Part shown: positions 1,299-26,107 of the stretch, one piece after another
Layout: each line of letters opens with the position of its first letter
How positions within the stretch are numbered: position 1 is the stretch's first letter
Assembly: GCA_043797665.1 (NCBI GenBank)
Contig: JAZDPL010000073.1
Coordinates: 32,001 to 96,000 of the forward strand
Length of the DNA stretch: 64,000 nt
Direction: 5' to 3'
Source: Candidatus Omnitrophota bacterium
GTDB taxonomy: Bacteria; Ratteibacteria; UBA8468; MWAK01
Notes under the pieces: model-generated
What the model saw: the letters and a program-made list of their open reading frames with translations, nothing else
Database searches by the model: none
What the model was told of the DNA's origin: nothing
Translations under genes and position numbers: made by a program

Positions 1299-1388
1299 GT
1301 CACCCTGAGCATAGCGAAGGGTCTCGTAAAAAAGCGAGATTCTTCGGTTCCCTACCTTGATGGTAGGGAACCCGTACCTCAGAATGAC
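1299..1388. repeat. GTCACCCTGAG...CTCAGAATGAC palindromic repeat carrying a nested 26-bp hairpin element (1350-1375)
   Basis: Terminal inverted arms plus an internal CCCTACCTTGATGGTAGGGAACCCGT identical to the copies at 4232-4257 and 25063-25088. Confidence 0.75.
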
Positions 1389-1391
1389 AAA

Positions 1392-3446
1392 ATGGTGGAC
1401 CCGAGTACGCCGGTTCGGTATCTGAAAGGAGTGGGGCCCAAGAAGAGTGAAATCTTCGCCAAAATGGGCGTCCACACCATCTTTGACCTCCTCTACTATT
1501 TCCCCAGACGCTACGAGGACCGGAAGAAGACCGTTAAGATTGCGGAAACCGTCCCGGGCCAGAACGCAACTATCCGGGCTGAAGTTTTAACTTCAGGCTT
1601 GAAGGACGGGTTCCGAGGCAAACGTATCTTTACGGTAGGCCTGAGTGACGACACCGGGGTCCTTTTTGCCACCTTCTTCAACCAGTCTTACCTTCAAGAT
1701 ATTTTTAAGCCGGGTCAGACGGTGCTGGTCTCCGGCCGGATTGAAGTTTACCAGGCGGGGAAGCAGATGGTCCACCCGGCATTTGAAATCATAGGCGAAC
1801 ACAAAGCATCTCTGGAAACCGGACGCATCGTCTCCTTATACCGGCTCCCGGAAGGCTTGAGCCAGCGCAGTTTTCACCTTGTCCTCTGGGAGGCACTGAA
1901 GGATAACCGGGGCAGATTTGAGGACATCGTCCCTTTTACGGTGCGGAATGAAATGAACCTGGGAAACCAGTACTATGCCCTGAAGAATATCCACTTTCCG
2001 GTAACGCCTACCGATTTGAAGAAGGCACGGGAATATCTAATCTTTGAGGAGTTTTTCTTCCTGAGTTCTGCGTTAAGGCACCGCAGGTTGGAGAGACAGA
2101 AGAATCAGATTTTGAAATCTGACGAAAGAGAAACAGAGCCTTTCCAGAAGATAGAGTTTCAGGATTTCCTGGCTAAATTTCAGGGTCTGCTGGACTTTCC
2201 CCTTACGGATAGCCAGCGGTCTGCGTTGAAAGAGATTGTCGCTGACCTCCGGAAGGATTACCCGATGCAGAGACTTTTAACCGGTGAGGTAGGTTCCGGA
2301 AAGACCTTGGTGGCGGCCGGCGCCATTTTTTACATGGTGCTTTCCGGCGGACAGTCCGCTTTCCTGGCGCCGACCGAAATTCTGGCAGAACAGCACTTCC
2401 TTAACCTCCAGCGTATTTTTGCCAGAGCCGGCAGAGAAGTCGCTCTGCTGGTCAGCGGAATAAGCCGGCAGGAGAAAGAGGCGGTTAAGACCGGTGTGGC
2501 TGAAGGCAGAATTTCCATAGTAATCGGTACCCACAGCCTCCTTTCGGAAGATTTAATCTTCCCTTCTCTCTCTTTAGCCATCATTGATGAGGAGCATAAG
2601 TTTGGTGTCAATCAGCGGGAAGTTTTAGGTGAGAAAGGAAAGGGAGTACATCTCCTGCTGATGAGCGCCACGCCGATTCCCAGAACGTTAGCTCTTACCC
2701 TTTACGGCGAGATAGAATTGAGCAGTCTCTCGCCCCGGGGCAAACGCCGGGTTGCCACCTATCTCTTCCGTAAAGAAGAACGGGAGGTTGCCTACCGGTT
2801 ATTTGACCGGTATCTGGTCCAGGGCAAGAAGGGATACGTAGTATCCAGTCGTTTAAAGGGAACGGCCGAAGATGTAGTTGGCGCTAAACCTCTTTTTGAA
2901 GAAGTTACGGCTAAGTTTCCTCACTGGCAGCCCGCCTTAATCTACGGCGGTCTTCCTCTGAAAGAAAAAGAAAGGGTCATCGCGGGTTTTCGTGAAGGGA
3001 AGTACCAGGTTCTGGTAGCGACCTCAGTGGTTGAGGTGGGTATTGACCTGCCGGAAGCAAACCTCCTTCTGATAGAAGATGCGGAACGTTTTGGTTTGGC
3101 GCAACTCCATCAGATACGGGGTCGTATCGGCCGGCAGTTTGAAGAAGCGCTCTGTCTGGTTGTCAGTGAATTCCAAAATGACCGGGCAGTAGAACGTTTA
3201 GAGATATTTGCTTCCACCTCGGAGGGCCAGGAATTGGCTGAGGACGACCTGGTTCTGCGTGGTGAGGGCGAGGTATTGGGAGAGCGGCAGCATGGTTTAC
3301 CTTCTTTGCGGCTGGCAAACCTGCGCCGCGATCTGGATTTATTGCAGAGCGGCCGTAAGACCGCCTGGGAGATTCTGGATGTTGACCCCGGACTGGAACT
3401 TCACCCGGAACTGCGCCAGCGCCTGATGATGCAAAACTTGTGGTAA
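1392..3446 (+). CDS. recG: ATP-dependent DNA helicase RecG
   Basis: LKGVGPK...LLYYFPRRYED N-terminus, wedge/OB domain, GEVGSGKT, DEEH, SATPIPRTL, AERFGLAQLHQIRGRIGR. Confidence 0.96.
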   Translation: MVDPSTPVRYLKGVGPKKSEIFAKMGVHTIFDLLYYFPRRYEDRKKTVKIAETVPGQNATIRAEVLTSGLKDGFRGKRIFTVGLSDDTGVLFATFFNQSYLQDIFKPGQTVLVSGRIEVYQAGKQMVHPAFEIIGEHKASLETGRIVSLYRLPEGLSQRSFHLVLWEALKDNRGRFEDIVPFTVRNEMNLGNQYYALKNIHFPVTPTDLKKAREYLIFEEFFFLSSALRHRRLERQKNQILKSDERETEPFQKIEFQDFLAKFQGLLDFPLTDSQRSALKEIVADLRKDYPMQRLLTGEVGSGKTLVAAGAIFYMVLSGGQSAFLAPTEILAEQHFLNLQRIFARAGREVALLVSGISRQEKEAVKTGVAEGRISIVIGTHSLLSEDLIFPSLSLAIIDEEHKFGVNQREVLGEKGKGVHLLLMSATPIPRTLALTLYGEIELSSLSPRGKRRVATYLFRKEEREVAYRLFDRYLVQGKKGYVVSSRLKGTAEDVVGAKPLFEEVTAKFPHWQPALIYGGLPLKEKERVIAGFREGKYQVLVATSVVEVGIDLPEANLLLIEDAERFGLAQLHQIRGRIGRQFEEALCLVVSEFQNDRAVERLEIFASTSEGQELAEDDLVLRGEGEVLGERQHGLPSLRLANLRRDLDLLQSGRKTAWEILDVDPGLELHPELRQRLMMQNLW

Positions 3447-3456
3447 CGCTTACGCT

Positions 3457-3518
3457 GTCATTCCCGCACGTGGTAAGCGGGAATCCATAGATTCCTGTTT
3501 ACTACATACAGGAATGAC
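3457..3518. repeat. GTCATTCC...GGAATGAC palindromic repeat
   Basis: GTCATTCCCGC-acgtggtaa-GCGGGAATCCATAGATTCCTG-tttactacata-CAGGAATGAC. Confidence 0.8.
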
Positions 3519-3533
3519 ATCTTAGGATTATAG

Positions 3534-4229
3534 ATGGAAAAAGGGTTGGTAGTTGTTATTTCGGCGTATAACGAAGCCAGATTCATTAAAGGGGTGGCGG
3601 AGAATGCCAGGGGGTATGCGGAAGAAGTGGTTGTGGTGGACGACGGCTCTAAGGACAAAACTGCCGAACTGGCGAAGTCGGCCGGAGCAACGGTCATCAG
3701 CCACTCTGAAAATTCAGGCAAGGGTACCGCACTCCGTACCGGTTTTGAATATGCTTATCAGAAAGGATATCCGATTATTATCACGATGGACGGCGATGGT
3801 CAGCACCACCCTGAGGACATGCCGGTTCTTTTGGAACACTACCGTAAAACCGGCGCCGGAGTGGTGGTTGGGTGCAGGTCCCGGAACCTGAAGAATATGC
3901 CGGTAGAACGGTTTGTCACCAACTGGTTTACCTCGTTTCTGGTCTCTTTACTGGCTGGTCAGCGGATACGGGACAGCCAGTCCGGATTTCGGGTTTTTGA
4001 TAGCCGGGTTATACCGTTTCTCTCCTTTTCTGCCAGCCATTTTGCCACGGAATCAGAAGTTTTAGTGGAGGCAAGCCGGGCCGGATTTAAAATTGCGGAA
4101 GCGCCAATCCGGACTATCTACGGACAGGAGCGGAGTAAACAGCATCCCTTGCGGGATACGGTGCGGTTCTTTAAATTTTTCTTCCGTTCCCTCTTTAAAA
4201 GACACCCTCACCCCACCCTCTCCCCTTGA
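3534..4229 (+). CDS. Glycosyltransferase family 2 (DPM/DPG synthase-like)
   Basis: AYNE, VVDDGSKD, GKGTAL, MDGDGQH, DSQSGFR motifs; the last codons (HPHPTLSP*) come from a repeat. Confidence 0.9.
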   Translation: MEKGLVVVISAYNEARFIKGVAENARGYAEEVVVVDDGSKDKTAELAKSAGATVISHSENSGKGTALRTGFEYAYQKGYPIIITMDGDGQHHPEDMPVLLEHYRKTGAGVVVGCRSRNLKNMPVERFVTNWFTSFLVSLLAGQRIRDSQSGFRVFDSRVIPFLSFSASHFATESEVLVEASRAGFKIAEAPIRTIYGQERSKQHPLRDTVRFFKFFFRSLFKRHPHPTLSP

Positions 4230-4277
4230 GGACGGGTTCCCTACCATCAAGGTAGGGGAGGATTAAGGTGAGGGGTG
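4203..4277. repeat. CCCTCACC...CTCTCCCC...GGGGAG...GGTGAGGG palindromic repeat with a nested 26-bp element (4232-4257)
   Basis: Inverted arms CACCCTCACC / GGTGAGGGGTG; related half copy at 26051-26107. Confidence 0.75.
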
Positions 4278-4286
4278 CTAATATCT

Positions 4287-4336
4287 GTAGGGGCTTGATT
4301 TATCAAGCCCGCGGGTCGGATGAATCCGACCCCTAC
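4287..4336. repeat. GTAG-family REP doublet (REPIN-like), 50 bp
   Basis: GTAG-GGGCTTGATTTATCAAGCCC-GC-GGGTCGGATGAATCCGACCC-CTAC. Confidence 0.9.
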
Positions 4337-4346
4337 TATGGCTTAA

Positions 4347-5000
4347 ATGGCAGAGCAAGATTACGAAACTCTTCGGCAGGAGATGGTCTCCGGGCACCTT
4401 GTTGGCCGGGGAATAAAAGATCCTTTGGTCCTCGCTGCCTTTCGCAAAGTTCCCCGGGAGAAGTTTGTCCCCGTAGAATACCGGGTAGACTCCTACGGTG
4501 ACTTTCCCCTGCCCATCGGCTATGACCAGACCATCAGCCAGCCGTATATCGTGGCTTTGATGATGGAGGCGCTTTCGTTGAAGAGGACAGACAAACTTCT
4601 GGAGATTGGAACCGGAAGCGGTTATCAGACTGCGCTCCTGACCGAGGTTGTTTCTTTTGTCTACTCCATAGAACGAATTCCGAACCTGGCGGAAAGGGCA
4701 GAAGAGATATTGAAAGAATTGGGTTACGCCAATTTTGAAATAAAGTTCGGTGACGGTACCTCCGGCTGGCAGGAACACGCACCCTTTGATGTGGTTCTGG
4801 TAAGCGCCGGCGCCAATAAAGCGCCAGCCAGTCTTTTGAACCAGTTGGCGCTTTCCGGAAGGATGATTATACCGGAGGGAAATCACTGGAGCCAGGACTT
4901 AACCCTTTACCGGAAGACCCCTTCCGGTATTACCTCCCGGAGCCTGGGCGGCTGTCGGTTCGTTCCCCTGATTGGAAAGGAAGGATGGGAATCTATGTAA
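4347..5000 (+). CDS. pcm: Protein-L-isoaspartate O-methyltransferase
   Basis: VPREKFVP, QTISQPYIVA, LEIGTGSGYQTA, GDGTSGW, CRFVPLIG. Confidence 0.95.
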   Translation: MAEQDYETLRQEMVSGHLVGRGIKDPLVLAAFRKVPREKFVPVEYRVDSYGDFPLPIGYDQTISQPYIVALMMEALSLKRTDKLLEIGTGSGYQTALLTEVVSFVYSIERIPNLAERAEEILKELGYANFEIKFGDGTSGWQEHAPFDVVLVSAGANKAPASLLNQLALSGRMIIPEGNHWSQDLTLYRKTPSGITSRSLGGCRFVPLIGKEGWESM

Positions 5001-5449
5001 TCACCTTTATCCTCTCCCTGCTTCCGATTTCGGAACTGCGGGGAGCCATTCCCTATGGCCTCAGCCAGGGTCTGCCTCTGAAGTGGGTTCTGGTTACCGC
5101 TATTGTGGGTAACTTTATTCCGGTTATCCCGGTCTATTGGGGTATTCAGAAGTTAGCCCGGTATCTTTCTAAGTTCCCGTCAGCAAAAAAGTTTTTTGAC
5201 TGGCTTTTTGAGCGTAGCCGGAGGAAGGCAAAAGGGATTGAGTGTTCCGAGTTTCTTGGTTTAGCCATTTTTGTCGGAATTCCCTTGCCGATGACCGGTG
5301 CCTGGACCGGTGCGATTATCTCCAGCCTTTTAGGCATACCACCCAAGAGGGCGATTCCCTCGGTAACCTTAGGTATTCTGATAGCGGCCGGAATCGTAAC
5401 CGGAATCTGCCTGGGCGTAATCACCGTCTTCCGCCAATTCGTCAGGTAA
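4985..5449 (+). CDS. Small multi-drug export family membrane protein (COG2426-like)
   Basis: LPISELRGAIP and FVGIPLPMTGAWTGA signatures; hydrophobic. Confidence 0.85.
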   Translation: MGIYVITFILSLLPISELRGAIPYGLSQGLPLKWVLVTAIVGNFIPVIPVYWGIQKLARYLSKFPSAKKFFDWLFERSRRKAKGIECSEFLGLAIFVGIPLPMTGAWTGAIISSLLGIPPKRAIPSVTLGILIAAGIVTGICLGVITVFRQFVR

Positions 5450-5458
5450 ATAGGGGCA

Positions 5459-5508
5459 GTAGGGGTCGGATTCATCCGACCCGCGGGTTCGATAAATCGA
5501 ACCCCTAC
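5459..5508. repeat. GTAG-family REP doublet
   Basis: GTAG-GGGTCGGATTCATCCGACCC-GC-GGGTTCGATAAATCGAACCC-CTAC. Confidence 0.9.
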
Positions 5509-5542
5509 AGAAGCCCCGCCTTGTAAGCCGGAATCTATACCT

Positions 5543-5818
5543 ATGAAACGGCTTCATCTTCACGTCTCCGGATACGTCCAGGGCGTGGGTTTTCGCTGGT
5601 ACGCGGAGAAGATTGCCCGCAAAGTGGGCGATATCACCGGTTTTGTGCGCAACCTGGGTGACAGCCGGGTGGAGGTTGTAGCGGAAGGCGAAGAGGCACA
5701 ATTAGAAAAGTTCCTCAACGAACTGAAGTCCGGTTATCTGGGTAAAAACATTGAGGATATCCGGAATTTAGACGAGCCCTGCACCGGCCAATTCCCCGAT
5801 TTTGCCATAACTTTTTAG
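5543..5818 (+). CDS. acyP: Acylphosphatase
   Basis: VSGYVQGVGFRW and GFVRNLGDSRVEVVAEG signatures. Confidence 0.93.
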   Translation: MKRLHLHVSGYVQGVGFRWYAEKIARKVGDITGFVRNLGDSRVEVVAEGEEAQLEKFLNELKSGYLGKNIEDIRNLDEPCTGQFPDFAITF

Positions 5819-5985
5819 TAGCGGTGCGATTCATCGCACGAATAAATAGTGGCATGAATGCCCTTGCTAATTCTAATGGAAAGGGGACCCGTATTCCGGA
5901 TGCTACAAAAAAGCTGTCATTCCGGCGGATAGTAAGCCGGAATCCAGTAGTTAAAGACGAGATTCCGTATCGAGTACGGAATGAC
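5818..5985. repeat. Composite repeat cluster: GTAGCGGTGCGAT REP, nested CCCT-hairpin element (5861-5892), GTCATTCC repeat (5916-5985)
   Basis: Each component recurs elsewhere (23853-23874, 25976-26053, 27075-27096, 324-425). Confidence 0.8.
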
Positions 5986-6002
5986 AAATTAGGGGTTAAT
6001 AT

Positions 6003-6401
6003 ATGGAGACGATACCGGTAAGGACAGGGTCAAGACAGGAGTTTGTGGAGGTTAGCCGGGAGGTACAGAGGGTTGTTGGAGAGAAAGGCTGGCAGGACGG
6101 CGTCCTTTTCCTCTTTGTCCCCCACACCACCGCGGGTATCTTAATTAACGAGCACGCGGACCCGGATGTGGCTGAGGATATCGGCGCAATGACGGATAAG
6201 ATGGTGTCCGCCACATTTCCTTATCAGCACAGCGAGGGTAACAGCCCGGGCCACATCAAGTCGGTCCTTTTCGGGAGTTCCCTATACGTAATCGTGGAGC
6301 AGGGCTCCTTACAGTTAGGGACCTGGCAGGGGATATTCTTCGCGGAATTTGACGGTCCCCGCAGCCGCACCCTCTGGCTGAAATTTCTTTCTTCTGGTTG
6401 A
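6003..6401 (+). CDS. yjbQ: YjbQ / UPF0047 family protein
   Basis: FVPHTTAGILINE.ADPDV, HSEGNSPGHIKS, LGTWQGIFFAEFDGPRSR. Confidence 0.92.
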   Translation: METIPVRTGSRQEFVEVSREVQRVVGEKGWQDGVLFLFVPHTTAGILINEHADPDVAEDIGAMTDKMVSATFPYQHSEGNSPGHIKSVLFGSSLYVIVEQGSLQLGTWQGIFFAEFDGPRSRTLWLKFLSSG

Positions 6402-6416
6402 TTGCCATTCTGAGGC

Positions 6417-6466
6417 GTAGGGGTCGGATTTATCCGACCCGCGGGCTTGATAAATCAAGCCCCTAC
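6417..6466. repeat. GTAG-family REP doublet
   Basis: GTAG-GGGTCGGATTTATCCGACCC-GC-GGGCTTGATAAATCAAGCCC-CTAC. Confidence 0.9.
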
Positions 6467-6475
6467 TGTAAAATT

Positions 6476-6933
6476 ATGGTTTGGCGGCAAAAATTCCGGT
6501 TGATTTATCCGCTTTTTTTCGCTGCGGTTCTGGTAAAATCTTTTGCTAACCTGGGTCTGGAGTTGATACCCTGTTACCCGGAAGCAGAGGCACACCTGGG
6601 CCTGCAGTATGTTATCGGATTACCGGAAAATACCGGGCTTATTTTTAAGGAGCCGGCGGGCATCGAGTTCCACACCCATAACTGCCGGTTTCCGATTGAG
6701 TGGTCTTGTTTCTCCGGGAAGTTTGAATTGCTGAAACGGAAAGTCCTGCTTCCGGAGACTTCAGGGCATATTACACCCGCCGGAACCCGGTACGTCATAG
6801 AGACGAATAAAGGGTTCTTTGCCAGAAAGGGAATAAAAGAAGGTGACCGGTTTGACCCGAAGAGTATCCGGTATTCCCGGAAATACAAAACCGTCTATGA
6901 TTTACCCCGGATTAAGGACCGCGGAGGAAAAAG

Positions 6934-6937
<4 letters not shown>
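6476..6937 (+). CDS. DUF192-like exported protein
   Basis: Hydrophobic N-terminus, GLQYVIGLPENTGLIF, FHTHNCRFPI, YVIETNKGFF..GIKEGD; start moved to ATG 6476 because the upstream extension is translated REP. Confidence 0.65.
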
Positions 6938-9260
<2,323 letters not shown>

Positions 9261-9282
9261 CGCACCTTCGGTGCGAACGTGT

Positions 9283-9338
9283 GTAGGGGTCGGATTCATC
9301 CGACCCGAATAAGCGAGCTTGATAAATCAAGCCCCTAC
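9283..9338. repeat. GTAG-family REP doublet (8-nt spacer) between convergent genes
   Basis: GTAG-GGGTCGGATTCATCCGACCC-gaataagc-GAGCTTGATAAATCAAGCCC-CTAC. Confidence 0.85.
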
Positions 9339-9360
9339 GGTTATTCCGGATAGTTTCGCG

Positions 9361-9687
9361 TTATTTTTTCCGTAATGTTTGTGCCTCCATATCATGTTTA
9401 TCCGTGTGGCGTATGTACACCTTTTGTTCGTTGCTTTCGGTTTGTTCAGATTTATCGGTAGCCCGTCTTTGGAGCTTTTCCTGACCCGATTCCTTGGGTT
9501 CGTACCAGATAGCTAAGAAAAGGACATTTTCTGAACTACCACTCATTCCGGTTGGCGCCTGACCGAAATTCTGTTGAATCTCTGTAATCGTTATTCCCGT
9601 CTTCTCCACCCATTCGTTCAGTTCGGCTTCCAGAAACTCTAACGCTTTGCGTGTTACTCCGGTGGTAAAGAATCGGACCTTGGACAT
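9361..9687 (-). CDS. Small hypothetical protein
   Basis: ATG at 9687 preceded by a GAGGGGG RBS; compact N-terminal domain and charged tail with RRATDK / IRHTDK. Confidence 0.65.
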   Translation of the reverse strand: MSKVRFFTTGVTRKALEFLEAELNEWVEKTGITITEIQQNFGQAPTGMSGSSENVLFLAIWYEPKESGQEKLQRRATDKSEQTESNEQKVYIRHTDKHDMEAQTLRKK

Positions 9688-9865
9688 TTTATTCCCCCTC
9701 GTCAATTCTATAAGGGTTCCCTTTCCATAGGATTGGAAAGGGCAATGGAACCCGTCTTTTACATTTCCGGATGATTCTTTATCTTACCAAAAACAGTTCC
9801 AAAAATCAATAGATGATTACACTTTATGATATTTTGTTGGTGTATATGGTATCATAACAACGGAG

Positions 9866-10489: not shown

Positions 10490-10493
10490 CCGG

Positions 10494-12599
10494 TCATATC
10501 TTACCCATTGCCTTAATGAGCCGGATGATGCCGTCGGTTATCCGGTCACGAAGTTCCTGGTATACACCATCTTTCCAGTAACCGTGGACATCGTAGTACT
10601 TAAGAGAACCCTGAACCGAATCCGCTATTTTATTTAGGTTTGTTTCCTCTTCCTCCGCCTGCCAAATAACCTTTTTGTCGCCGGATTTTTTACCTTCTTC
10701 AATCAGATTGGTCAGGGTCTGGATGTATCGGTAGTCGTTGATGCCCATCCGCGCCATCTCAAAGTTGAGCGTCCGGAGTTCATCCCGGGCAGATCCGTAA
10801 CCTTCAGGCAGGTAGCAGCCAAAACGATTTTGTGATTCTGCTAATATAAACGGCAGGACCGTTAAGTTAAGTTTAACCGTCATTTCATTCCCCTTTTGTA
10901 AAAGGGGTGTCTGCGTTAGCAGACGGGGTATTCCCCCTTCCTCAACGGATAAGCCTATCTTGCCGCGATAGATTCCCGGGGCGGTATCCTCTGGTATGCG
11001 TAAGGTAAACCAGATTTGTTTAGTCGCACCTTCATTAAGGTCAGTATCGACGTGCCTTATCGGTTCCACCACAAACGGAAGCAGAATGTACCTGGAAGAG
11101 GTGCTATGCAGAATAGTTTTTACCATTCCTGCTTCAATACGGTCTGCGCTGATTACCCCTTGTGAACCGGTCAAACCGCTTATTGTAACCTTCAACCGGT
11201 CCAGGTCTTTTAACGGGTAAACCCCCAGGGTAGCATTGGTTGTTTCTCCCGGTGTTGCTCGCACGGTCAGTTTATCTGTAATTTCGCTCCTTTTGGGAAT
11301 GGAGGTTTTAAAGATACGGACACCTAAGTCCCGGGTAAAAACAAGGAAACCCCGGTTCTTTTCCGGAATGGTTATATCGGTTAAAGGCGCTTCTTCGGGT
11401 GGTTTTACTTCTTCCAGGAGGGCTAATTTTTCCGGAGGCAGAAGATTAAAATCCTGTTCGTCTCTGGCAATCTGTTGTTCCGCCAATTTCCGGTCCTTTG
11501 CCGGATAAACCACCAGAGTGTTGGCTATCCAGTCCTTGCCTCGGAATCCTATGCGCAGGCAGCCGTCAGTAATTCTCACCCGTTCTCCCCCCTCGCCCAT
11601 TATCAGATGGACCTTATACTCACCGTCAAGGAGGTCCACCCGGAAGGTATGTTCAACAATATCCGGGTCATCGTAGGGTACGCCGAGGGTTCCTGTCCAG
11701 CCGTAGCCTTTTCTGGTGGTATAAGCGGTTTCAGGAGTAACCCGGCGGTAGCCGGATTTTAACGGGGACCCCTGGGGTCCAAAACTGAAGGCGTAACAGA
11801 AATCGTAGAGACGTTCGTCTGCCTCTAATTTCTTTTTAGCCACCTTTTCCTCTCTCTCCTTAAGGGCAGACTGAATTGCAAGGAGAAACGTCTCTTTTTG
11901 TTTCTGATAGTTTTCATCCGCAGTAAAGACCAACTTCCCAAACCGTTCCGGGTTCCGGAAGGGACCGACTAACCGGTTCCAGGTACTCAGTTCGCCAAAT
12001 TCTTTCTCCTGCCGGCAGAAATTTACCCTCCAGGTACCTTTTAATAAAGGATTACTGATGTCAACAAAAAGGTTACGGAAGGGAATAGCTATTTCTGCAG
12101 TCCAGGATTCTTTTCCCTTTGATACCGCATACTTAATCTGGTTGTCAAACTCCGCCCCTTCCTTTAACATTTCTTTTCTTGCCCGGAACTGCCCCACGGA
12201 ATCAAGCGCTAAATGGTAAAATAATTTTCCTTTTGGTTCGGTCATCAGAAAGACCTCAATGCAGTCATTGTTGAAAAAAATGTTTGGTTCCAGGCATTCA
12301 AAGGCTACGTATAGATTTTCCTTATCCCGTGCCAGCCGGACACCGGTCTGCTTGGTAGGCAGGGAAAAAACCGGGTGGTTGAGGATAAAGGGCTCTAACC
12401 TTTCCGCAGATTCCCAGAAAGGCTCGTCTACTTTGCCGTCAATCTCCGGGGTTCCCTGAAGGAGCGGAACATAGGCGGTCCGCAGACCATCGAGTACTTT
12501 TTCCGGGTTTGTGGCACCCCGGGCTATTTCAACCAGAATACCGCAGACTAAACCAATGACCAGTGCCCCCATCCCTAACTTTCTGAATATCATTTCCAT
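10494..12599 (-). CDS. Secreted CBM9-like / glycoside-hydrolase-associated protein, catalytic domain apparently absent
   Basis: Signal-like N-terminus, PEIDGKVDEPFW...NLYVAFEC...WTAEIAIPF (CBM9-like), IPEDTAPGIYRG, C-terminal MGINDYRYIQTL. Confidence 0.6.
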   Translation of the reverse strand: MEMIFRKLGMGALVIGLVCGILVEIARGATNPEKVLDGLRTAYVPLLQGTPEIDGKVDEPFWESAERLEPFILNHPVFSLPTKQTGVRLARDKENLYVAFECLEPNIFFNNDCIEVFLMTEPKGKLFYHLALDSVGQFRARKEMLKEGAEFDNQIKYAVSKGKESWTAEIAIPFRNLFVDISNPLLKGTWRVNFCRQEKEFGELSTWNRLVGPFRNPERFGKLVFTADENYQKQKETFLLAIQSALKEREEKVAKKKLEADERLYDFCYAFSFGPQGSPLKSGYRRVTPETAYTTRKGYGWTGTLGVPYDDPDIVEHTFRVDLLDGEYKVHLIMGEGGERVRITDGCLRIGFRGKDWIANTLVVYPAKDRKLAEQQIARDEQDFNLLPPEKLALLEEVKPPEEAPLTDITIPEKNRGFLVFTRDLGVRIFKTSIPKRSEITDKLTVRATPGETTNATLGVYPLKDLDRLKVTISGLTGSQGVISADRIEAGMVKTILHSTSSRYILLPFVVEPIRHVDTDLNEGATKQIWFTLRIPEDTAPGIYRGKIGLSVEEGGIPRLLTQTPLLQKGNEMTVKLNLTVLPFILAESQNRFGCYLPEGYGSARDELRTLNFEMARMGINDYRYIQTLTNLIEEGKKSGDKKVIWQAEEEETNLNKIADSVQGSLKYYDVHGYWKDGVYQELRDRITDGIIRLIKAMGKI

Positions 12600-12601
12600 A
12601 A

Positions 12602-16732: not shown

Positions 16733-16762
16733 TGGAATCCTCCTTCTGACATTGGCTCACCG

Positions 16763-17680: not shown

Positions 17681-17684
17681 TTCT

Positions 17685-17731: not shown

Positions 17732-17769
17732 GGCAATCAATCTCCCTTATAATAGGGTCGATGTTTATC

Positions 17770-18342
17770 CTACTGTTCTTGTATTTGGATAGATTCGATT
17801 TCTTGCGCACCCAGATAGATTCGATCGATCAGAATCTTAGAGGCTGCGCCGTCCTCGATGCCGCAAAACCAGACAAAGGATTGGCCTTCCGCCTTAATCG
17901 TTCCGATCGCGTAAGTCTTCCAACCGGCAGGGACTTTTTTAACTGAAACGTAATTACGCATCAGTTCTATTTTTGAATCTACGTCGTAGATGCCACAACA
18001 GAAAGCGTCGCCCGCATCTTTTGCTTTAATCACCTTAACGACCGCATAAACACGATAACTCTCCCCCCGTGAAAGAAGATTGATCGGAATGGGGCACTGT
18101 ATCGCCCATTCCGGTGTGGTGCCTAAAAGCCAGGCATAACTTCCGGATGGTGCATCTTTATCAACCATCCTGCCGCTAAGATCCCCTTCCTTATAGATGG
18201 TGAAGTCCGCATTCTGGAAATTAACCACGCTGGATGCCGGAAGTCCCTCTGTGCGCTCCAGAGGAACTTCCGCAGCACGCACATTCGGGGATGTCAACAT
18301 AAAAACCGCCAATACACCCACAATAACCGATAACCTTTTCAT
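17770..18342 (-). CDS. Secreted hypothetical protein (possible beta-sandwich)
   Basis: GGGAGG RBS, signal peptide ending VRA, aromatic-rich, C-terminal ILIDRIYL. Confidence 0.65.
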   Translation of the reverse strand: MKRLSVIVGVLAVFMLTSPNVRAAEVPLERTEGLPASSVVNFQNADFTIYKEGDLSGRMVDKDAPSGSYAWLLGTTPEWAIQCPIPINLLSRGESYRVYAVVKVIKAKDAGDAFCCGIYDVDSKIELMRNYVSVKKVPAGWKTYAIGTIKAEGQSFVWFCGIEDGAASKILIDRIYLGAQEIESIQIQEQ

Positions 18343-18466
18343 ATACCCTCCCCTTTATCTCAAACGACGTATAACGGTAATTATCTTTTTAGAAGAAAAA
18401 ATAATAACCACGATACCCTGGCTTTCCGCGGGAAACGGAATTCGGCGACGCCGGACCAATTCGTCT

Positions 18467-18973
18467 TCAATCCTTTTGGCTCGCCTTTTCCCTGGCAACT
18501 TCCAGAAGCGCAAGGATGTTCTCCAGCATCACCGGGTTTTTCTCGATGACTCGGTTCAGAAGCCCCCTGGCAAAATCCTTTTGCCCTGCCATGTCTGCCA
18601 GAAAATTTTCGATACCCCGGGCGTAATAAGCTTTTTCGAAATGACTTTTATAGATACGAACCAGAAAATACTTGTCCGAAGTTTCCCGCGATTTCTTGAG
18701 CGCATCGATAAATTCGGAATAGCTGCCGAAACCGATGACCGTCGCCCGGGATGTTGGGACGTCAGTCCCGGTCCAGTCGCTTGCCAGTTGGTGCCAGTCC
18801 CACCACGGATAGACGAAATCTTTTACGTCGTTGTCAAAAAATTCCTCGGCGGTTTTATCCGCAACGACTTTTCCTATCGCCTCCCAGACATCGGGACAGA
18901 GGTCAATTGCGTATGGAACCCGTTCTGTGCTCCGGTGTCGTATTGCTTCCTTAACCAGCTCTCGACTTTTCAT
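18467..18973 (-). pseudogene. Truncated uroporphyrinogen-decarboxylase-family gene
   Basis: MKSRELVKEAIRHRSTERVP and FEKAYYARGIENFLADM match the URO-D family N-half; ends well short of the length of the intact family member at 46886. Confidence 0.6.
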
Positions 18974-19090
18974 GGATGAATTTTGTTCCGTCATAAATCC
19001 CTTACTATTCACTCTGACATCCTCCGTCTTGCCCATCAAAAGGGAATATTTTAGCCTAATATCTGCCTTGTTTGTTATATTTTACTCTGA

Positions 19091-20845
19091 TCACACCGGC
19101 TCGGGAAAACACGCGGTCTTTTGCGCCCGCTGTCCCTTGGCGAACAGGTGTTCCCAGCGGAAGAAGATGCCCCAGCCCGTGCCGTGACTCAGATCGAAGA
19201 CGATGACAACGTCGTGCGTTCCGCGGCCGAGTTTGACTTCAGCCTTGGATCGCCACGGATTTGTGGGGTTGAAAGACTCCGGCTCGACAATCATGGACCG
19301 GCCATCCACGAACACGCGCACACCGCCATCATGGCCTACATGCATCTTCCAGGTGCCTGCCTGCGTTACCTTGAATCGGTTAGCCAGATACACGTACCCA
19401 TCCGTATTCCCCACCCGCGAGTGGGTATTGACGAAGCCGTCCTGCTCGGCGCCGATGCCGCTCCATCCCAGCGACTCGTCAAGCGTGACGGCTTTGGCCT
19501 GGGCCGTTGTCCATCCCACGGTCTTGGGGAAAATCTGTGACAGGGACCAAGCCCCGACATAAGGAGACAGCAACGCGACCGGCTCTAACGGCAACGGCAG
19601 GTATTCACAGGTGCCTCCCAGTTGTTGGAACGGCGTCCCTTTAAATTCCAGTTTTATCAGCGTTATGCCGGCCACAGGATCCGGGCACTTTTCCGGCAGT
19701 CCCATGAAGACAATCCGGTCCCGCTCCTGACGAAAGGCCACCGTTCGGTCCGAGGCTACCCACGAGACCTTCTTTAGTTCTCCACGCATGCCGCCGATCG
19801 CGAATTCTTTTCCTGGCCACTGCGCGATCCAAAAATAATAGGCCGATCCTTTGCGTGACCAACCACACGTGGGGAAGGAAATCGGCATCACCCGGAACTT
19901 ATCGGACATACAGTCCGTCTTCCCGTAGACTACAGCGCCATAGGTCTTGAGCCAGTGTCCCACAGCCTTCAACCGCGTCACCGCTTCCACGGGAATCGTG
20001 CCGTCCGGCTTCGGTCCGACGTTCAACAGCAGGTTCCCGCCGCTGGCCGCGCAGGTGCTCAGCATTCCGATGACTTGGCGTACCGGCAACCAGTCTTCTT
20101 CCGGCGTCGGCATCCAGCCCCACGAACCGTTAAAGGTCATGCAGGCTTCCCAATCGCGACCAGACGGTGTGATGTGTTCTTCGGGCGTACTGAAATCCTC
20201 TGGTAAGTTCGAGCGGTCGTTAATCAGGATGTGTGGTTGGAGCCGGCGCACCATGGCCACAAGCCGCTCGCTCTTCCAGCGCTCGGGGGGCCCCAACGGC
20301 ATCGGCGCATCGAACCACAGAATATCAATCTTGCCGTATTCGATCATCAACTCACGAACGCAAGCGTAAGTGAATTCAATGAACCGGCGACGGGCCGCCT
20401 CGTCTCTCGCGCAGCGCGTACCATCGGGATGATGCCAATCCGCCAGACAGTAATACAGGCCCACACGCAGTCCGGATTCGCGGCAGGCATCAATATATTC
20501 TCGTACCAGATCGCGCCGGGGCCCGCGACGAACCGCATTGTAGTCCGTCTGTTGCGTGTCCCACAGGCAGAAGCCTTCAAGATGTTTGGTGGTCATGACC
20601 ATGTACTTCATGCCCGCCTCTCGGGCCAGCCGGGCCCAGGCCCGAGACGCATGGGGTTTGGGACGCCACGTGTCCGCGTATCGCTCGTAATCCGCCAAAG
20701 GGATTCGTTCATTGCACATCACCCATTCGTGCCGGGCGATTTGCGAATAGAGCCCCCAATGTATGAACATGCCGAAGCGGGCTTCGCGCCACCATCGCAT
20801 GCGCCGGTCTCTATCGTGGCTCGCCGAACTCTGCGTTGAACTCAT
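19091..20845 (-). CDS. Alpha-L-fucosidase (GH29) with an extra C-terminal beta domain
   Basis: WWREARFGMFIHWGLYS, TTKHLEGFCLWDT, ILWFD, GNLLLNVGP; C-terminal GHDGGVRVFVDG; visibly more GC-rich than its neighbours. Confidence 0.88.
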   Translation of the reverse strand: MSSTQSSASHDRDRRMRWWREARFGMFIHWGLYSQIARHEWVMCNERIPLADYERYADTWRPKPHASRAWARLAREAGMKYMVMTTKHLEGFCLWDTQQTDYNAVRRGPRRDLVREYIDACRESGLRVGLYYCLADWHHPDGTRCARDEAARRRFIEFTYACVRELMIEYGKIDILWFDAPMPLGPPERWKSERLVAMVRRLQPHILINDRSNLPEDFSTPEEHITPSGRDWEACMTFNGSWGWMPTPEEDWLPVRQVIGMLSTCAASGGNLLLNVGPKPDGTIPVEAVTRLKAVGHWLKTYGAVVYGKTDCMSDKFRVMPISFPTCGWSRKGSAYYFWIAQWPGKEFAIGGMRGELKKVSWVASDRTVAFRQERDRIVFMGLPEKCPDPVAGITLIKLEFKGTPFQQLGGTCEYLPLPLEPVALLSPYVGAWSLSQIFPKTVGWTTAQAKAVTLDESLGWSGIGAEQDGFVNTHSRVGNTDGYVYLANRFKVTQAGTWKMHVGHDGGVRVFVDGRSMIVEPESFNPTNPWRSKAEVKLGRGTHDVVIVFDLSHGTGWGIFFRWEHLFAKGQRAQKTACFPEPV

Positions 20846-20914
20846 TTAGACATTCTCCATAAAATACTGTGGCTCCACTTTCTCAAGCCAATTTATGCAG
20901 TAACTTAGCTGACT

Positions 20915-21676
20915 TCAAAAAATACTCATATCCTGTCTATACCCTTTCCATGGCGCTCCAACGCCGGCGTAGTCCTGGTCAAAGGTCTTTAATTTACTTT
21001 CGTTAACCGGTTCCACGTGTCCATCGGCAAAGAGACAGTTGGCCTGCCCGTTATGCCGCAAGTAAATACCGGGATAACCACTGTTCGGGACGTTCCACCA
21101 ATAGAACCACGAAGCCTGAGTTTCCCTCATAGAAGAAGGATCAAAGGCTGGTCCGAAGACAGAGTCGGCGGCGAGCACATACTCTGCCGGATTGCGGATT
21201 TTCTTGAAGATGGTAAAAGCTAATCCGCCAGAGTATTTCACACAAACACTACCAAACGGGTCAGGTTGATCGTTCCAGTCATAAACACTAAGTGCCCGTC
21301 GCATTCCATAGCATGTCCAATAATCCGTATAGACAGCCGGTTTACCTGATGGACACAAAGAAATACCCGATTTCCCAACGGAGGGGACCGGTAGATACCC
21401 ATTCTGATAATAGTAATACAGCCAAGAATAGTTGTCGCTTCCGTTGATGAGATAGTCGTCATTATCTTGGGCGTACATCATAAACGCCAGTCCTATCTGT
21501 TTCAGGTTGCTCATACAACTTGCCTGCCTGGATTTTTCTCTTGCCTGACTGAGCGCCGGCAGTAACATCGCCGCCAGGATGGCGATGATGGCGATTACCA
21601 CTAAAAGCTCTATCAAGGTAAACCCATTCCTGTGTTGGGACAAGACATTTGTCCGGTTTCCTATCTTTTTAACCAT
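20915..21676 (-). CDS. Prepilin-type N-terminal cleavage/methylation protein (DUF1559, H-X9-DG)
   Basis: G^[30 protein letters not shown]...CMSNLKQIG...Y; C-terminal [16 protein letters not shown]. Confidence 0.92.
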
Positions 21677-21690
21677 TTTCCTCCTTTCCT

Positions 21691-23835
21691 CTAATCCCCC
21701 TCATTTCCCCTTTGTAAAAGGGGGTAAAGGGATTGGGAATCAATTTGGTTCGGTATCAGTTCTCCCACGGCGTATGTCTGAAATGCCGGCACCGATATTT
21801 CATGCCCCTTAACCTCTAAGCAGATTCTGTCGGGTTCCGTGTCAAAAAAGAAGAAGGTACATTTCCGATACTTGTCCTGGGGAATGAAGATTTTGACCGT
21901 GGAGACGGTATTCCGGTTATCATAATTGACCAGGTGCAGGTACTCTTTGCTGCCGTGAACAGCAGAAGTCCAGTTAACCGCCACACTTTCCGGAGCACGT
22001 ATAGTCAAAGATAGGTTTCCGGCCCACTTGATTGCCTTGAGAATTTGCACGCTGTTTTTGGGCAATGCCCAGTTGCAAAACGGGTATTCCGCCCAATTCC
22101 GGGCAGGGTTTTGACCCCTGATGAAGTAACGATTTGCGTCTGAGTCAAATCTCCAGTTCGGAAACCAATTTTCCTCTTTCACCTCGGGTACGACATCAGG
22201 AACATAGGCTACTTTTCCACCGCCGAGAACATTTTCAAAGCGGGCGTTTTCAGTGTACTTAAAAATCAACATCAGTTTCTTCATCAATAAGTTCTCCGGG
22301 TAACATCGGGAATTTTCATTCCTTTCCCCGCTTCTGCCCGTGACCAGAAGATTTCCACCTGCTCTCACAAACCCGGCAATCTCGTCCATAATATCCGTAC
22401 TAAGACAGGTTTGATTTGCCAGGACCAGGAGGTGATAGCCGGGGAGTTTCCTCTTGAGGTTCTCGTCAAACAGGATATCAAATGGAATCTGTTTCTGTAT
22501 TAACATCTGTTCTATCAGCATAACATGCCGATGTGCCGTGCGGGTGTCAAACGCCATAGACGAAAAGTTTCGCAGTATGGCAACTTCGGCATTGCTTACC
22601 ACGTTGCTAAAAATATCCGTGTGATTCTTTCTCCAGCCGGTAATATGATGCAGAGTCTCGGACATATGTTTATCATCAATCATCCGCAGTGCCCCTTTAA
22701 GGAAGCCAAGATGTCCTGAGTTGCCGCGGTTAAAGGCAAGAGATTCTGCGACCGAAAGGCAGAACCGCTTACGATCATAAGGAGATTCTTTACCGTGCGA
22801 TGGATATGGATGGTTATAGGCAATAACAGATTGTCCGATGGAGTCGGCAATTTTGTAGTCGCGTATTCTGTGGCAAAGTATTCCTTTTTCTCTAACGGCA
22901 GGGAGATGGCCGTCTTCGGAGAAAACGATGTCATTCCTACCCGCCAGCAGAGGCAGATATACTCCGAAGTAGGCGGATGTATTGGTCCAGGAGAAAATGC
23001 CGGAATTGATACACATTACCACGTTCGGGTCAAGGCGGTGTAAATAGTCGGAGAGTTCCCGGTGAAAGTCCGCAAAAAGAAAACACTTGTAACGGATCCA
23101 TTCCTGAACATCAGGTGCAATAAGGATACCCTGGAGGAACATGACGTTATTTATCCCGGCAATTGTTACACCCGGTTCCCAGGTTGGAATTTCTACTCCC
23201 TCTATGTTCCGGTGACCAAAATAGAGTGCGAACTCTTTTCGCCGCTTTCCCCATCGCTCAAGTAAAAACTTTTTGAAGCCTTCGCTGCACCTGGTACACT
23301 TACAAATAGACGCCTCATCCATTCCGGCCATTCCGTCAAAATGAATGGCATCTACCCCAAGTTCTTTCACCGCATACTGGATAACCTTTTTGGCGTATGT
23401 CCGGTAGGCGGATTCGTTAAAACAAATACGGTGGCGCCAGGAGCTCCCGCAAACAGGCACTTTTTCTCCACGTTCATTCCTGGCGACCCATTCTTTTGCT
23501 TCCGGCATTTCCTGGTAAAAAGTCTCTCCAATTATGTTATCTACACGGAAATAGACCGCTATTTTCATCCCATATTTATGGCAAAGATTAACCTGTTCTT
23601 TGACCCGTTCTCTCTCCTGGCGTTCTGTTTTCCAACCGAACCCCTTATGATAATGGGTGATGAAGAAGTTGAAACCGTTGCGAGCAAGTTTCTTGATGGT
23701 TTCTTCTTCATGCGCCATTTCATACTCTTTCAATGAGGCCGGGTCCTCCACACCCCACCGCCGCGAGACCATCAAAGACTCCCAACAGCCGATAACGACC
23801 ATACCGCTTGCCAACCAATCCTTCGACCGCTTCAT
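21691..23835 (-). CDS. Putative glycoside hydrolase (TIM barrel plus beta-galactosidase trimerisation-like domain)
   Basis: [18 protein letters not shown] metal-site motif, IPFDIL...[10 protein letters not shown]...[21 protein letters not shown] before ATG 23835. Confidence 0.65.
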
Positions 23836-23852
23836 GAAAAACTCCTCAATTT

Positions 23853-23874
23853 GTGCGATAAATCGCACCGCTAC
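23853..23874. repeat. Single GTAG REP (GTAGCGGTGCGAT family)
   Basis: GTGCGATAAATCGCAC-CGCTAC. Confidence 0.8.
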
Positions 23875-23882
23875 TGGGTAAC

Positions 23883-24947
23883 TTACGGGTAGATTTTGAC
23901 ACTGTTTCTGACCACCAACTCCGGCTTGACCACAATCTGGCGAGGAGATTTTTTTGCCCCACCCATCATCTTCAGTAATAAGTGTAAACCCGCCACGCTT
24001 ACTTTATCCAAATGCGGCTCAACGGTGGTAAGAGGCGGGTCGCTGAATAAAGTCTCCGAGATATTATCGTAGCCGACGATACTTAAATCCTCCGGGACTT
24101 TGATATTATTTTTGTGACAACAATCCAGTAGGTGCAGGGCACGGTGGTCATTGGCGGTAAAGACCGCGGAAGGCGGCCGCGGGAGAGCCAATAATTGCTC
24201 CAGGGCGGTCTCATCCTCTTTTGGGTTGAAGCCGCTGGTTTCTTTCGCCAGACTCTGGTCAAGATTTATCTTACTCTCTCTCAACGCCTGCTGATACCCT
24301 TCAAAGATGGATACAAACCAGGCTGAGGTAACCGGACCACAGATAAGACCTATTCTTCGGTGTCCCATTGTAATTAGGTACCTGGTACCTAAATATCCCC
24401 CTGTTTTTTTATCCACCCGTACCTGTACCACCTCTTTCTCTTCCCTGGCCGGGTGGAGGACAACGAAAGCCAGGTTATTTTCTTTTATCAGCGAGAGGTT
24501 GTAGGCGGCCGGGTTACGAAGAATGAGAATACCTACCTGATGGTTGTTTTTGGGGGAGAGCAGGGTTAAGAACCTTTCGGAAGTAATATCAAAGTCCACC
24601 CGTAATTTCTTTGCTTCCAGGGACAGGTTACGGACAATCTTACTGGCAACGTGGCTGGCCAAGAACTTCTCAGTTGATATTTTGTCGGGTATTACCAGCC
24701 GTATCTTTAAGGGCTGGGTAGAGACGTTGACTACGGTTCCCCGTTTCTGTACTTTTTTCACCAGTCCGTTGTGGTGCAGTTCATTCAGGACCCGGCGTGC
24801 GGTAATGTTACTAACCTTATATTTGGCGCAGATTTCGCTGAGAGTGTAAAAACGCTGACCGAATTCAAATCCGGGAATCTGGGTGATTAAATCATTACAT
24901 ATCTCTTCCCAGCGGGGGAACTTGTTCGTCTCTAACAAAAGTTCCAT
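23883..24947 (-). CDS. GntR-HTH / LacI-type sugar-binding hybrid regulator
   Basis: EICAKYKVSNITARRVLNEL wHTH; GHRRIG, VPEDLSIVGYDN, PPLTTV, PELVVRNS. Confidence 0.88.
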   Translation of the reverse strand: MELLLETNKFPRWEEICNDLITQIPGFEFGQRFYTLSEICAKYKVSNITARRVLNELHHNGLVKKVQKRGTVVNVSTQPLKIRLVIPDKISTEKFLASHVASKIVRNLSLEAKKLRVDFDITSERFLTLLSPKNNHQVGILILRNPAAYNLSLIKENNLAFVVLHPAREEKEVVQVRVDKKTGGYLGTRYLITMGHRRIGLICGPVTSAWFVSIFEGYQQALRESKINLDQSLAKETSGFNPKEDETALEQLLALPRPPSAVFTANDHRALHLLDCCHKNNIKVPEDLSIVGYDNISETLFSDPPLTTVEPHLDKVSVAGLHLLLKMMGGAKKSPRQIVVKPELVVRNSVKIYP

Positions 24948-25002
24948 TTTAGATTCTTCAGCTCAATACGCTTCAGAATGACCACAATTGGCTGATTATA
25001 TT

Positions 25003-25042
25003 TGTATACACTTATTTTACCATGCAAAAAGTCAAATGTCAA
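25003..25042 (-). promoter_or_regulatory. Promoter of the regulator operon with a downstream TGTATACA palindrome
   Basis: TTGACA(25042-25037)-17 nt-TAAAAT(25019-25014); TGTATACA at 25003-25010 resembles a GntR-type operator. Confidence 0.65.
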
Positions 25043-25287
25043 GTCGTTCGCCTCCGGCGAACCCCTACCTTGATGGTAGGGAACCCGTCCCAACGGGGGT
25101 TTACACCCCCAATGGCGGTCGCTAGCGCTCCCTGTTACCCCCTCTACTGCGTAAGGGGGTTCCTCGCCACCCTCCAACCAAGGGTTGGAGTCCCTCCATC
25201 TGGATGATGGAGTCCTCGTGCCTTGGCAATCCCCCCTTGAACCTACGAAGTATGAAAGATATAAATTCCTGTAGGTTCAAGTCGTTC
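25039..25287. mobile_element. Non-coding, hairpin-rich element bounded by 11-bp direct repeats (MITE-like)
   Basis: TCAAGTCGTTC at 25039-25049 and 25277-25287; several short stems inside. Confidence 0.45.
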
Positions 25288-25315
25288 AAGTTTTAGTTTG
25301 AATTTTGGAACAAAT

Positions 25316-25371
25316 ACGTAGACCGTACCCGCTTAAGAGAAATCCACCAGCGCTACCATCCCCGCCCGTAA
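25316..25371 (+). pseudogene. xerD: Duplicated 3' end of xerD (VDRTRLREIHQRYHPRP*)
   Basis: Matches 27008-27063 with 2 mismatches in 56 nt. Confidence 0.9.
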
Positions 25372-25383
25372 ATAAAATAAATG

Positions 25384-25412
25384 TTGTCTAATAATCTAAA
25401 AAATGTTATAAT
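25384..25412 (+). promoter_or_regulatory. Promoter of the TA-like pair
   Basis: TTGTCT-17 nt-TATAAT with an extended -10 TG; GAGGGG RBS follows. Confidence 0.65.
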
Positions 25413-25429
25413 TTTTGAGGGGTTAAAAT

Positions 25430-25687
25430 ATGCCGATTATAAGCAGATTTTTTGGGATCGTAATTTACATGCTCTGGCGGGAACATCGGCCGCCGCATTT
25501 TCACGCTAAATACGGGGATGACGAAATAATCGTTGAAATCGAAAACGGCAAGGTCAACGGCACGATGTTAAAGCGCGCTCTTAATTTGATTCAAGAGTGG
25601 CGCGAATTGCACAAAGAAGAACTCATGCGCGACTGGGAGCTGGCAGAACAGAAAAAAGCTCTCTTCCCCATAAAACCCTTGGAGTAA
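25430..25687 (+). CDS. DUF4160 family protein (putative toxin)
   Basis: MPIISRFFGIVIYM...EHRPPHFHAKYG...EWRELHKEELMRDW. Confidence 0.85.
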   Translation: MPIISRFFGIVIYMLWREHRPPHFHAKYGDDEIIVEIENGKVNGTMLKRALNLIQEWRELHKEELMRDWELAEQKKALFPIKPLE

Positions 25688-25691
25688 ATCT

Positions 25692-25937
25692 ATGATTTTA
25701 CATGTTAAAGAAGCAAAATATCTTCACGATTATGTAATATGGGTGCGCTTTAACGACGGTATTGAAGGCGAGGTTGATTTAAAAGGCGAGCTGGAAGGCG
25801 AAGTATTCGGCCCGCTCAAAGATAAAAGAAAATTCAAATCTTTCAAAGTTGTCCCTATTCTTGAAACCATCGCTTGGGAAAACGGCGCCGACCTCGCCCC
25901 GGAATTCCTTCATGATAATTTGAAAATCTTGGCATAA
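25692..25937 (+). CDS. DUF2442 family protein (putative antitoxin)
   Basis: VKEAKYLHDYVIWVRFNDG.EGEVDL...TIAWENGADLAPEFL; directly follows DUF4160. Confidence 0.85.
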   Translation: MILHVKEAKYLHDYVIWVRFNDGIEGEVDLKGELEGEVFGPLKDKRKFKSFKVVPILETIAWENGADLAPEFLHDNLKILA

Positions 25938-25975
25938 CTGCTCATTTCACCCGCAAATTTGACGTCATACCTAAA

Positions 25976-26107
25976 GTAGCGGTGCGATTTATTGCACGAA
26001 CGCACGAATAAGTGGCATAAATGCCCTTGCCAATTATATGGCAAGGGAACCCTTAATCCTTCCCTTACAGATTCAACTGTAAGGGGACCCGTCCACAAGG
26101 GGAGAGA
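25976..26107. repeat. Composite repeat cluster: GTAG REP, two CCCT-hairpin elements (26024-26053, 26062-26092) and a CCTTAATCCT...GGGGAGAG host repeat
   Basis: Components match 5818-5892, 9713-9742 and 4203-4277. Confidence 0.75.

Follow-up and report, generated by a model that had tools for sequence, protein, structure and literature searches.

We analysed a window of 64,000 nucleotides (nt) from a Candidatus Omnitrophota bacterium (GenBank assembly GCA_043797665.1, contig JAZDPL010000073.1, positions 32,001 to 96,000 of the forward strand; G000:C79:32001-96000 in our numbering). It belongs to an assembly, G000, of 2.69 Mb and 86% completeness. A Pfam scan of 47 open reading frames (ORFs) in the window revealed housekeeping, sugar-metabolism, toxin-antitoxin-like or unannotated products and one XerD-like integrase, the only recombinase; none was a candidate mover of repeats, as a sequence-only reading of the window had also stated. 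That reading had proposed a very small, non-autonomous element whose 3' tail is conserved, and our results support it. The window carries copies of a gene-less hairpin insertion element of 25 or 30 nt, a real and recently mobile micro-element of a rare known kind, whose insertion footprint is its most surprising trait. It forms three sibling families: E1 (CCCT...AGGG stem, tail DACCCG), E2 (CCCC...GGGG, WCCCCG) and E3 (CTCC...GGAG, TCCTCG). The copies and two of their hosts, assigned from the sequence, are as follows (REP, repetitive extragenic palindrome):

1299 to 1388, plus strand: host, a CGTC/TGTC-type palindromic repeat, GTCA...CTCAGAATGAC
1350 to 1375, plus strand: E1, 19-nt hairpin with tail AACCCG (1350-1374), then a target-derived T (1375), in the small hairpin loop of the CGTC-type palindrome
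4203 to 4277, minus strand: host, a CCCTCACC...CTCTCCCC/GGGGAGAGG palindromic repeat
4232 to 4257, minus strand: E1, 19-nt hairpin form, at CCTC-TC-CC of a C-rich hairpin repeat
5861 to 5892, plus strand: E1 variant with a 25-nt imperfect hairpin at a chimeric joint between a GTAG-REP arm (left) and an ATTCCGG-type arm (right)
9712 to 9742, minus strand: E1, 24-nt hairpin form, tail variant AACCCT plus T, adjoining an inverted tail remnant
25063 to 25088, plus strand: E1, 19-nt hairpin form, within a composite repeat
25172 to 25221, plus strand: sibling of the CTCC-stem family, 8-bp stem and 3-nt loop, tail TCCTCG, at CACC-CC-CTTGG, with another copy nested in its tail
25194 to 25219, plus strand: sibling E3, CTCC stem, tail TCCTCG, inserted at TC in the tail of the 25172-25221 element
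26024 to 26054, plus strand: E1, 24-nt hairpin form, tail variant AACCCT, at a chimeric joint of a REP arm and a C-rich hairpin host
26062 to 26092, plus strand: E1, 24-nt hairpin form, host site as at 4232, directly upstream of the XerD-like integrase gene
29389 to 29414, minus strand: sibling E2, CCCC stem, tail TCCCCG, in frame (+24 nt) in a TPR gene (28345-30279)

All seven intervals of the sequence-only reading were recovered. The same 26-mer occurs at 1350-1375 (plus), 4232-4257 (minus) and 25063-25088 (plus), the variants at 5861-5892, 9713-9742 (minus), 26024-26053 and 26062-26092 have the sequences described, and the 4232 and 26062 copies share one site of one host family. Three siblings had been missed (25172-25221, the nested 25194-25219 and 29389-29414). 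The copies at 5861 and 26024 had been placed within a REP arm after GTGGCATRAATG; this was right for the left flank, while the right flanks come from other hosts and the empty arm continues CCACCGCTAC, so that both are chimeric joints. The 9712-9742 copy has no host palindrome around it and lies beside the inverted tail remnant. Empty forms of the window's host sites were found: the host of the 1350 copy has the empty TC form in 4 of 12 cases in G000, that of the 4232 copy in 19 of 19 matches in contigs fetched from a congener, G001 (1.3 Mb, 790 kb fetched), and 4 copies of the site of the 25172 sibling, matched over 12-nt flanks, are empty (CC). The whole 94-nt unit containing the 5861 copy is absent from the orthologous G001 site. 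Of the two listed hosts, the repeat type at 1299-1388 also flanks small GIY-YIG genes of G000, and the one at 4203-4277 is presumably linked to DUF559 nucleases.

The element consists of a hairpin of 19 or 24 nt with C...G ends, followed by a 6-nt tail whose last bases are CG. In the window, the pattern CCCT-N10-20-AGGGRACCC matched 7 times; 100 shuffles averaged 0.15 matches, and not one of them reached 7. Across G000 the strict pattern gave 104 matches, or 120 with T allowed at the start of the tail, and a backwards-pattern control gave 0 against 96. An unbiased scan showed that C-start hairpins with a 6-nt tail ending in CG have length peaks at 19 and 24 nt. A loose family scan yielded 137 hits against 24 in the reversed genome; removal of 15 unlike E1-E3 left 122 curated sites (102 E1, 15 E2 and 5 E3). 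We then pooled G000, the fetched G001 contigs and the scan loci into 221 deduplicated sites, with hairpins of 24 nt in 139 and 19 nt in 67. The stem and loop types are 7+5, 8+3 and 9+6.

Among 18 aligned copies, 99.4% of cells were paired, 26 cells showed a two-sided change and 5 of 9 pairs covaried, figures biased upward because the copy scan itself selected hairpins. None of 500 shuffles matched this pairing, and slid registers came nowhere near it. The covariation may reflect copying from arm to arm as much as selection. Three families with different stems follow one common rule, which tentatively suggests a cargo defined by shape, length and a short tail. Copies also insert inside other copies. 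All 16 tail-only matches proved to be outer elements split by such nesting, truncated copies or copies with a damaged arm, and no long autonomous form was present among them. A head-to-tail E2 doublet lies in a gene at G001 C84:~3189 (L312), where the G000 counterpart has a single copy; it fits self-insertion at the element's own first CC.

To define the ends, we joined the flanks of each copy and searched for unfilled versions. Empty hosts were found both as paralogues and as orthologous alleles in the congener, indicating that the hairpin is an insertion element and not an integral part of its hosts. The joined-flank search mostly returned TC for copies with T as the next base and CC for those with C. 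Insertion converts X-YC-Z to X-[C...CG]-Y-Z, with no target duplication, one C lost and a net gain of 24 or 29 nt. At TG-TC-ATTC sites, all 29 filled copies (17 distinct variants) end in T, the C is kept in none and an extra left T occurs in none. All 8 filled ATCC-CC-CTTT sites end in C, as do all 5 copies at the REP site CC-CCTAC, and where the element's own loop is the target, 9 of 9 sites end in T. Among the 32 variants with more than one copy, 19 carry T at some sites and C at others. Since the same variants end in T or C according to context, the last base is set by the target, and neither this T, counted earlier as part of the element, nor the C belongs to it. The rule may be read in two ways: either the element brings its own first C and the C of the target disappears, or a 24- or 29-nt core is inserted with YC reversed around it.

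The alignment of G000 with G001 covers 559 kb and contains 81 clean indels of at least 15 nt; 11 of them belong to the element family, each adding 24 or 29 nt. They lie mostly at CC sites, with one at TC (C85:49568). One shared insertion ends in T in G000 and in C in G001. In another genome, a duplicate of a tRNA-Trp 3' end contains the element, and the intact gene upstream reads TC. Duplicates of tRNA 3' ends about 100 nt downstream of tRNA genes, with the element at the T-arm TC, were observed in three different assemblies (L052:~1380-1705, L060 and L049). Intron-like insertion into tRNA genes was rejected, as the copies sit in 3'-end duplicates or fragments.

The G000/G001 indels also contain a second polymorphic micro-family with a gain of 27 nt and GGGGCAGG / CCTGTTTACTAC-like hairpins (for example L074, L080, L118 and L152), and several GGG...CCC mini-hairpins of 15-19 nt.

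The target is a short motif. At 166 deduplicated sites, G is rare at -2 (5 sites) and at +3 (5), A is rare at -1 (7) and T at +1 (2), and a pyrimidine occupies +2 in 150 sites; the core begins with T in 98, C in 64, A in 3 and G in 1. The motif HB-YC-VYH describes 133 of these 166 sites, against 14% of all YC steps, and also holds in 21 sites with low-copy flanks. Avoidance of A at -1 and of T at +1 forms a two-fold pattern. High-copy repeats hold 83 of the 122 copies, and density per motif site is about 13-fold higher in non-coding repeats (71/4158) than in other non-coding DNA (23/17799), a ratio inflated by host amplification and deflated by missed low-copy repeats. In three hosts, filled and empty sites number 24 and 445, 10 and 24, and 1 and 510. 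The proposal that the element parasitises repeats at a fixed position did not hold: used sites are distributed among stems, feet and loops much as the unused motif sites of repeats are, and 16 of the 122 copies lie in non-repeat parts of long ORFs. Guide pairing of the tail or stem with the target was likewise rejected, as no consistent pair was found and the associations were confounded by host family. Orientation relative to replication was 50/50 (100 sites on 42 contigs, strand from a crude contig-level skew), and the split by direction of transcription, 41/47, showed no bias.

As far as the searched sequences show, the element is confined to one family-level lineage. G001 has 45 matches, and at least one match occurs in 6 of 8 other genomes of the family. 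Three single matches, none of them hairpins, were found in 32 genomes of other families, and a search of 65 genomes from the phylum found E2 and E3 in none but G000 and G001. The 30-nt pattern was found at 35 loci in 6 assemblies among 185,579 species, and the four titles that name a taxon are Omnitrophota or Ratteibacteria. It also matched 85 metagenome stretches; 80 of these were fetched, the majority aligning to G000 or G001. Three patterns gave no match in viral contigs, and phage and plasmid records gave no credible match. The same variants recur in independent assemblies.

We searched G000 for the mover. ORFs flanked by element pairs were ordinary genes only, and no nuclease or recombinase gene flanked by the motif was found. 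Among 137 small ORFs with repeats on both sides, the only nucleases recognised by eye were GIY-YIG and RAYT genes, each with its own repeats: the two intact small GIY-YIG genes and a fragment have CGTC-type repeat flanks, and the RAYT gene has GTAG REP flanks, as do the RAYT loci in G001, G006 and G005. In G000 the two intact small GIY-YIG genes lie at C85:18886-19179 and on C89 at about 10714-11010, and the RAYT gene at C47:11213-11644. One GIY-YIG gene, on a small contig (G000 C54:836-1500), has a repetitive basic C-terminal region and resembles phage homing endonucleases. G000 also encodes a longer Y1 protein, a DUF559 protein without repeat flanks (its gene was not found in G001), two IS110 genes and a diversity-generating retroelement (DGR). 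Cas1, HNH and GxxExxY were not found in G000, and an IS91-type Y2 transposase was found in neither G000 nor G001. The single reverse transcriptase of G000 was rejected as mover because it belongs to an ordinary DGR (L180:612-2328, G000 C50: an Avd-like gene, an AAC-rich template repeat and the reverse transcriptase). An RNA master locus was also rejected; the candidate is an in-frame copy in a helicase-like gene without an Rfam match. At gathering score, Rfam returned only tRNAs in window positions 1-30000 and 8 loci. Of the enzyme families whose distribution in relatives was surveyed, a set without IS110 and the longer Y1, small GIY-YIG and RAYT are those present in both high-copy genomes, and both are also present in genomes that gave no element match. 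G000 and 7 of 8 other genomes of the family have small stand-alone GIY-YIG ORFs; the exception, G004, also has no element match.

The element is almost certainly mobile, and its lack of coding capacity and of a long form makes movement in trans by a dedicated enzyme quite probable. We slightly favour nick-primed copying over clean strand transfer. The presence pattern makes GIY-YIG a tentative candidate for the enzyme, and the full combination, a gene-less 25- or 30-nt hairpin copied in by nick-and-prime through a small host endonuclease in trans, most likely GIY-YIG, has in our view about an even chance of being right. GIY-YIG cleavage leaves a 2-nt stagger, and in HUH strand transfer all nucleotides are conserved. 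In the proposed mechanism, the enzyme would bind the folded hairpin and make a cut in the target that spans the YC dinucleotide. The invariant C would be held out of the helix or removed, and a polymerase extending the cut end would read Y, skip C and switch to the element as template. Nick-and-copy on double-stranded DNA is preferred over HUH transfer because of the two-base window, the symmetric exclusions at -1 and +1, the apparent absence of strand bias and the lost base. It is conceivable, though rather doubtful, that this is an undescribed chemistry in which an enzyme recognises a motif of 7 bp, precisely writes in an oligonucleotide-sized cargo of 24 or 29 bases and removes or relocates one invariant C, which would block recutting.

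Several observations weigh against this reading. Only one orthologous pair represents the TC class, for which the other evidence comes from paralogous hosts and the tRNA duplicate. A final A occurs at three sites, at two of which the orthologue has CC, and several copies in a MITE-like host (MITE, miniature inverted-repeat transposable element) carry one extra left base (T). The motif was derived from the very sites on which it was scored, and the skipped C is a postulate of the model. The element flanks no nuclease gene; the GIY-YIG and RAYT genes carry repeats of their own. G004 is only 85% complete, and small GIY-YIG genes occur in about a dozen genomes of other families, with the element not found in those searched.

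Two other enzymatic routes were weighed, each less probable than nick-primed copying. The element may be a REP-like substrate of a Y1 HUH enzyme (RAYT/TnpA-REP), transferred as a single-stranded DNA dumbbell circle with the C lost in later repair, which we regard as improbable. Read on the opposite strand, it has the layout of group 3 REPs (CGRG, 2 nt and a perfect stem), and the product resembles a clean insertion at C/T, C/C or C/A, dinucleotides cut by TnpA-REP according to PMC8266576. A circle junction CG/CCCTW would match the target motif, circular folding gives a stable dumbbell, and RAYT is 82-100% identical in G000, G001 and G006. However, the empty alleles are TC rather than CT, no lagging-strand bias was seen with the crude skew, and one base is lost where HUH transfer would conserve nucleotides. 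Moreover, RAYT is flanked by GTAG REPs, was not found with the query used in G008, which has 8 element copies, and has relatives in family f2, which yielded no element. Alternatively, a dimeric integrase or recombinase of an undescribed type may insert a 24- or 29-bp core with a 2-bp stagger, which we regard as similarly improbable. Its product would equal a 2-bp duplication in which each copy lacks the outer base, and would look like a swap of YC to C...Y with no net base loss. The net gain equals the core length exactly, the footprint and the -1/+1 exclusions are two-fold symmetric, and two length clusters five bases apart suggest a ruler. Yet the first C closes the hairpin in every variant and is more naturally part of the element, Cas1 was not found in G000, the flanks of the two IS110 genes are unrelated, and we know of no chemistry giving the YC to C...Y swap in one step.

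The two explanations that need no enzyme fare worse. Gene conversion or template switching between hairpin repeats, with amplification of filled hosts, could account for the roughly 15 copies that ride in one amplified MITE-like family, for recombination at the element in the chimeric joints at 5861 and 26024, and for the palindrome-perfecting tail variants. It is largely refuted by precise insertions under the same rule in unique genes without homology to the element, and the same rule operates in at least 8 unrelated host contexts; we consider it very unlikely. That host repeats simply contain the hairpin as a fixed component, or that it arose during assembly, is practically excluded: about two thirds of copies do lie in high-copy repeats, but empty hosts far exceed filled ones, orthologues occur in filled and empty states, and variants are common to independent assemblies.

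The closest likeness is to the small dispersed repeats SDR1-8, reportedly described in Nostocaceae by Elhai and colleagues in 2008 (Genome Res 18:1484). These are reported to be about 25 nt long, to show compensatory hairpin change, to insert in other repeats and in themselves and to be lineage-restricted, and they have no known mover. The element has the traits that define this kind (below about 30 nt, dispersed, compensatory change), and it also shows filled and empty sites in relatives and self-nesting. To our knowledge, how repeats below 40 nt move has been open since their description in cyanobacteria. The lineage differs, and the likeness is one of described traits. SDR5 inserts at HIP1 and is confined to Nostocaceae (PMC5861425), and SDRs are also treated in PMC3116915. 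REP/REPIN with RAYT share with the element a tag, 2 nt and a perfect stem on one strand, non-autonomy, similar size and a RAYT in the genome (PMC8266576, PMC3116915 and PMC6006769). In contrast to them, the element has a CGRG tag (tails DACCCG, WCCCCG and TCCTCG) rather than GTAG or CGTC, occurs as singlets that come and go at orthologous sites rather than as inverted doublets, flanks no RAYT, loses a target base and uses REPs as targets. CGTC-tagged palindromic repeats have 8-9 bp stems, short loops and tails, intragenic copies and no known dedicated transposase (Di Nocera et al. 2013, PMC3733652). Here they are hosts, and insertion at the TC of the TGTC/CGTC tag destroys the tag.

Palindromic repeats also serve as landing sites for IS1397, IS621 and IS1594 (PMC3184786), which are full-size and have their own transposase. 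Unlike IS110, represented here by two genes with unrelated flanks, the element shares no ends with it and its core dinucleotide is not duplicated. In IS91/Helitron rolling-circle elements, a hairpin lies a few bases short of the 3' end, the target is not duplicated, and a target motif 3' of the cut resembles the element's first bases. The element described here shares these traits; IS91/Helitron differ in conserving target bases. No gain or loss of target bases is expected for IS200/IS605, whereas one C is missing at 29 of 29 TG-TC-ATTC sites. A MITE of a DDE transposon would have terminal inverted repeats and a target-site duplication; the element has neither and is an asymmetric hairpin with a tail. 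A full-text literature search found no paper on the family or its footprint, most subscription papers and supplements being outside its reach. Within one small lineage, the family offers a precise footprint that can be tested, together with a target motif, rules on length and a few candidate enzymes. Should one enzyme perform the whole insertion, it could become a compact tool for writing short tags into DNA.

The element also enters genes. ORFs of at least 200 aa, some of which may not be genes, contain 22 of the 122 copies, and 19 of these 22 have a net gain divisible by three: 16 of 44 copies with a gain of 24 nt lie in such ORFs, against 3 of 71 with a gain of 29 nt, and two of those three are read-through of the MITE-like host. 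The 25-nt form adds exactly eight codons and already lengthens proteins. The longer Y1 gene contains two copies in frame. This locus (L167, G000 C3:3356-4708) encodes a 450-aa Y1 HUH protein with AAGGTGCCAGGCACC repeats upstream, and the two micro-elements in frame are nested. The MITE-like unit, at G000 C21:72589-72889, about 15 other sites and L017:1566-1867, is about 300 bp long with TTGAC...GTCAA ends and an open frame throughout. It is polymorphic relative to G001 and holds the element at two sites, and most filled copies keep the frame through one-base compensations.

In the window, the composite repeat at 25020-25260 contains three micro-element copies and lies upstream of a DUF4160/DUF2442 gene pair (25430-25937), with further copies downstream of the pair. 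A second gene pair, at 57295-58241, encodes an AbiEii-type nucleotidyltransferase and a DUF6922 protein.

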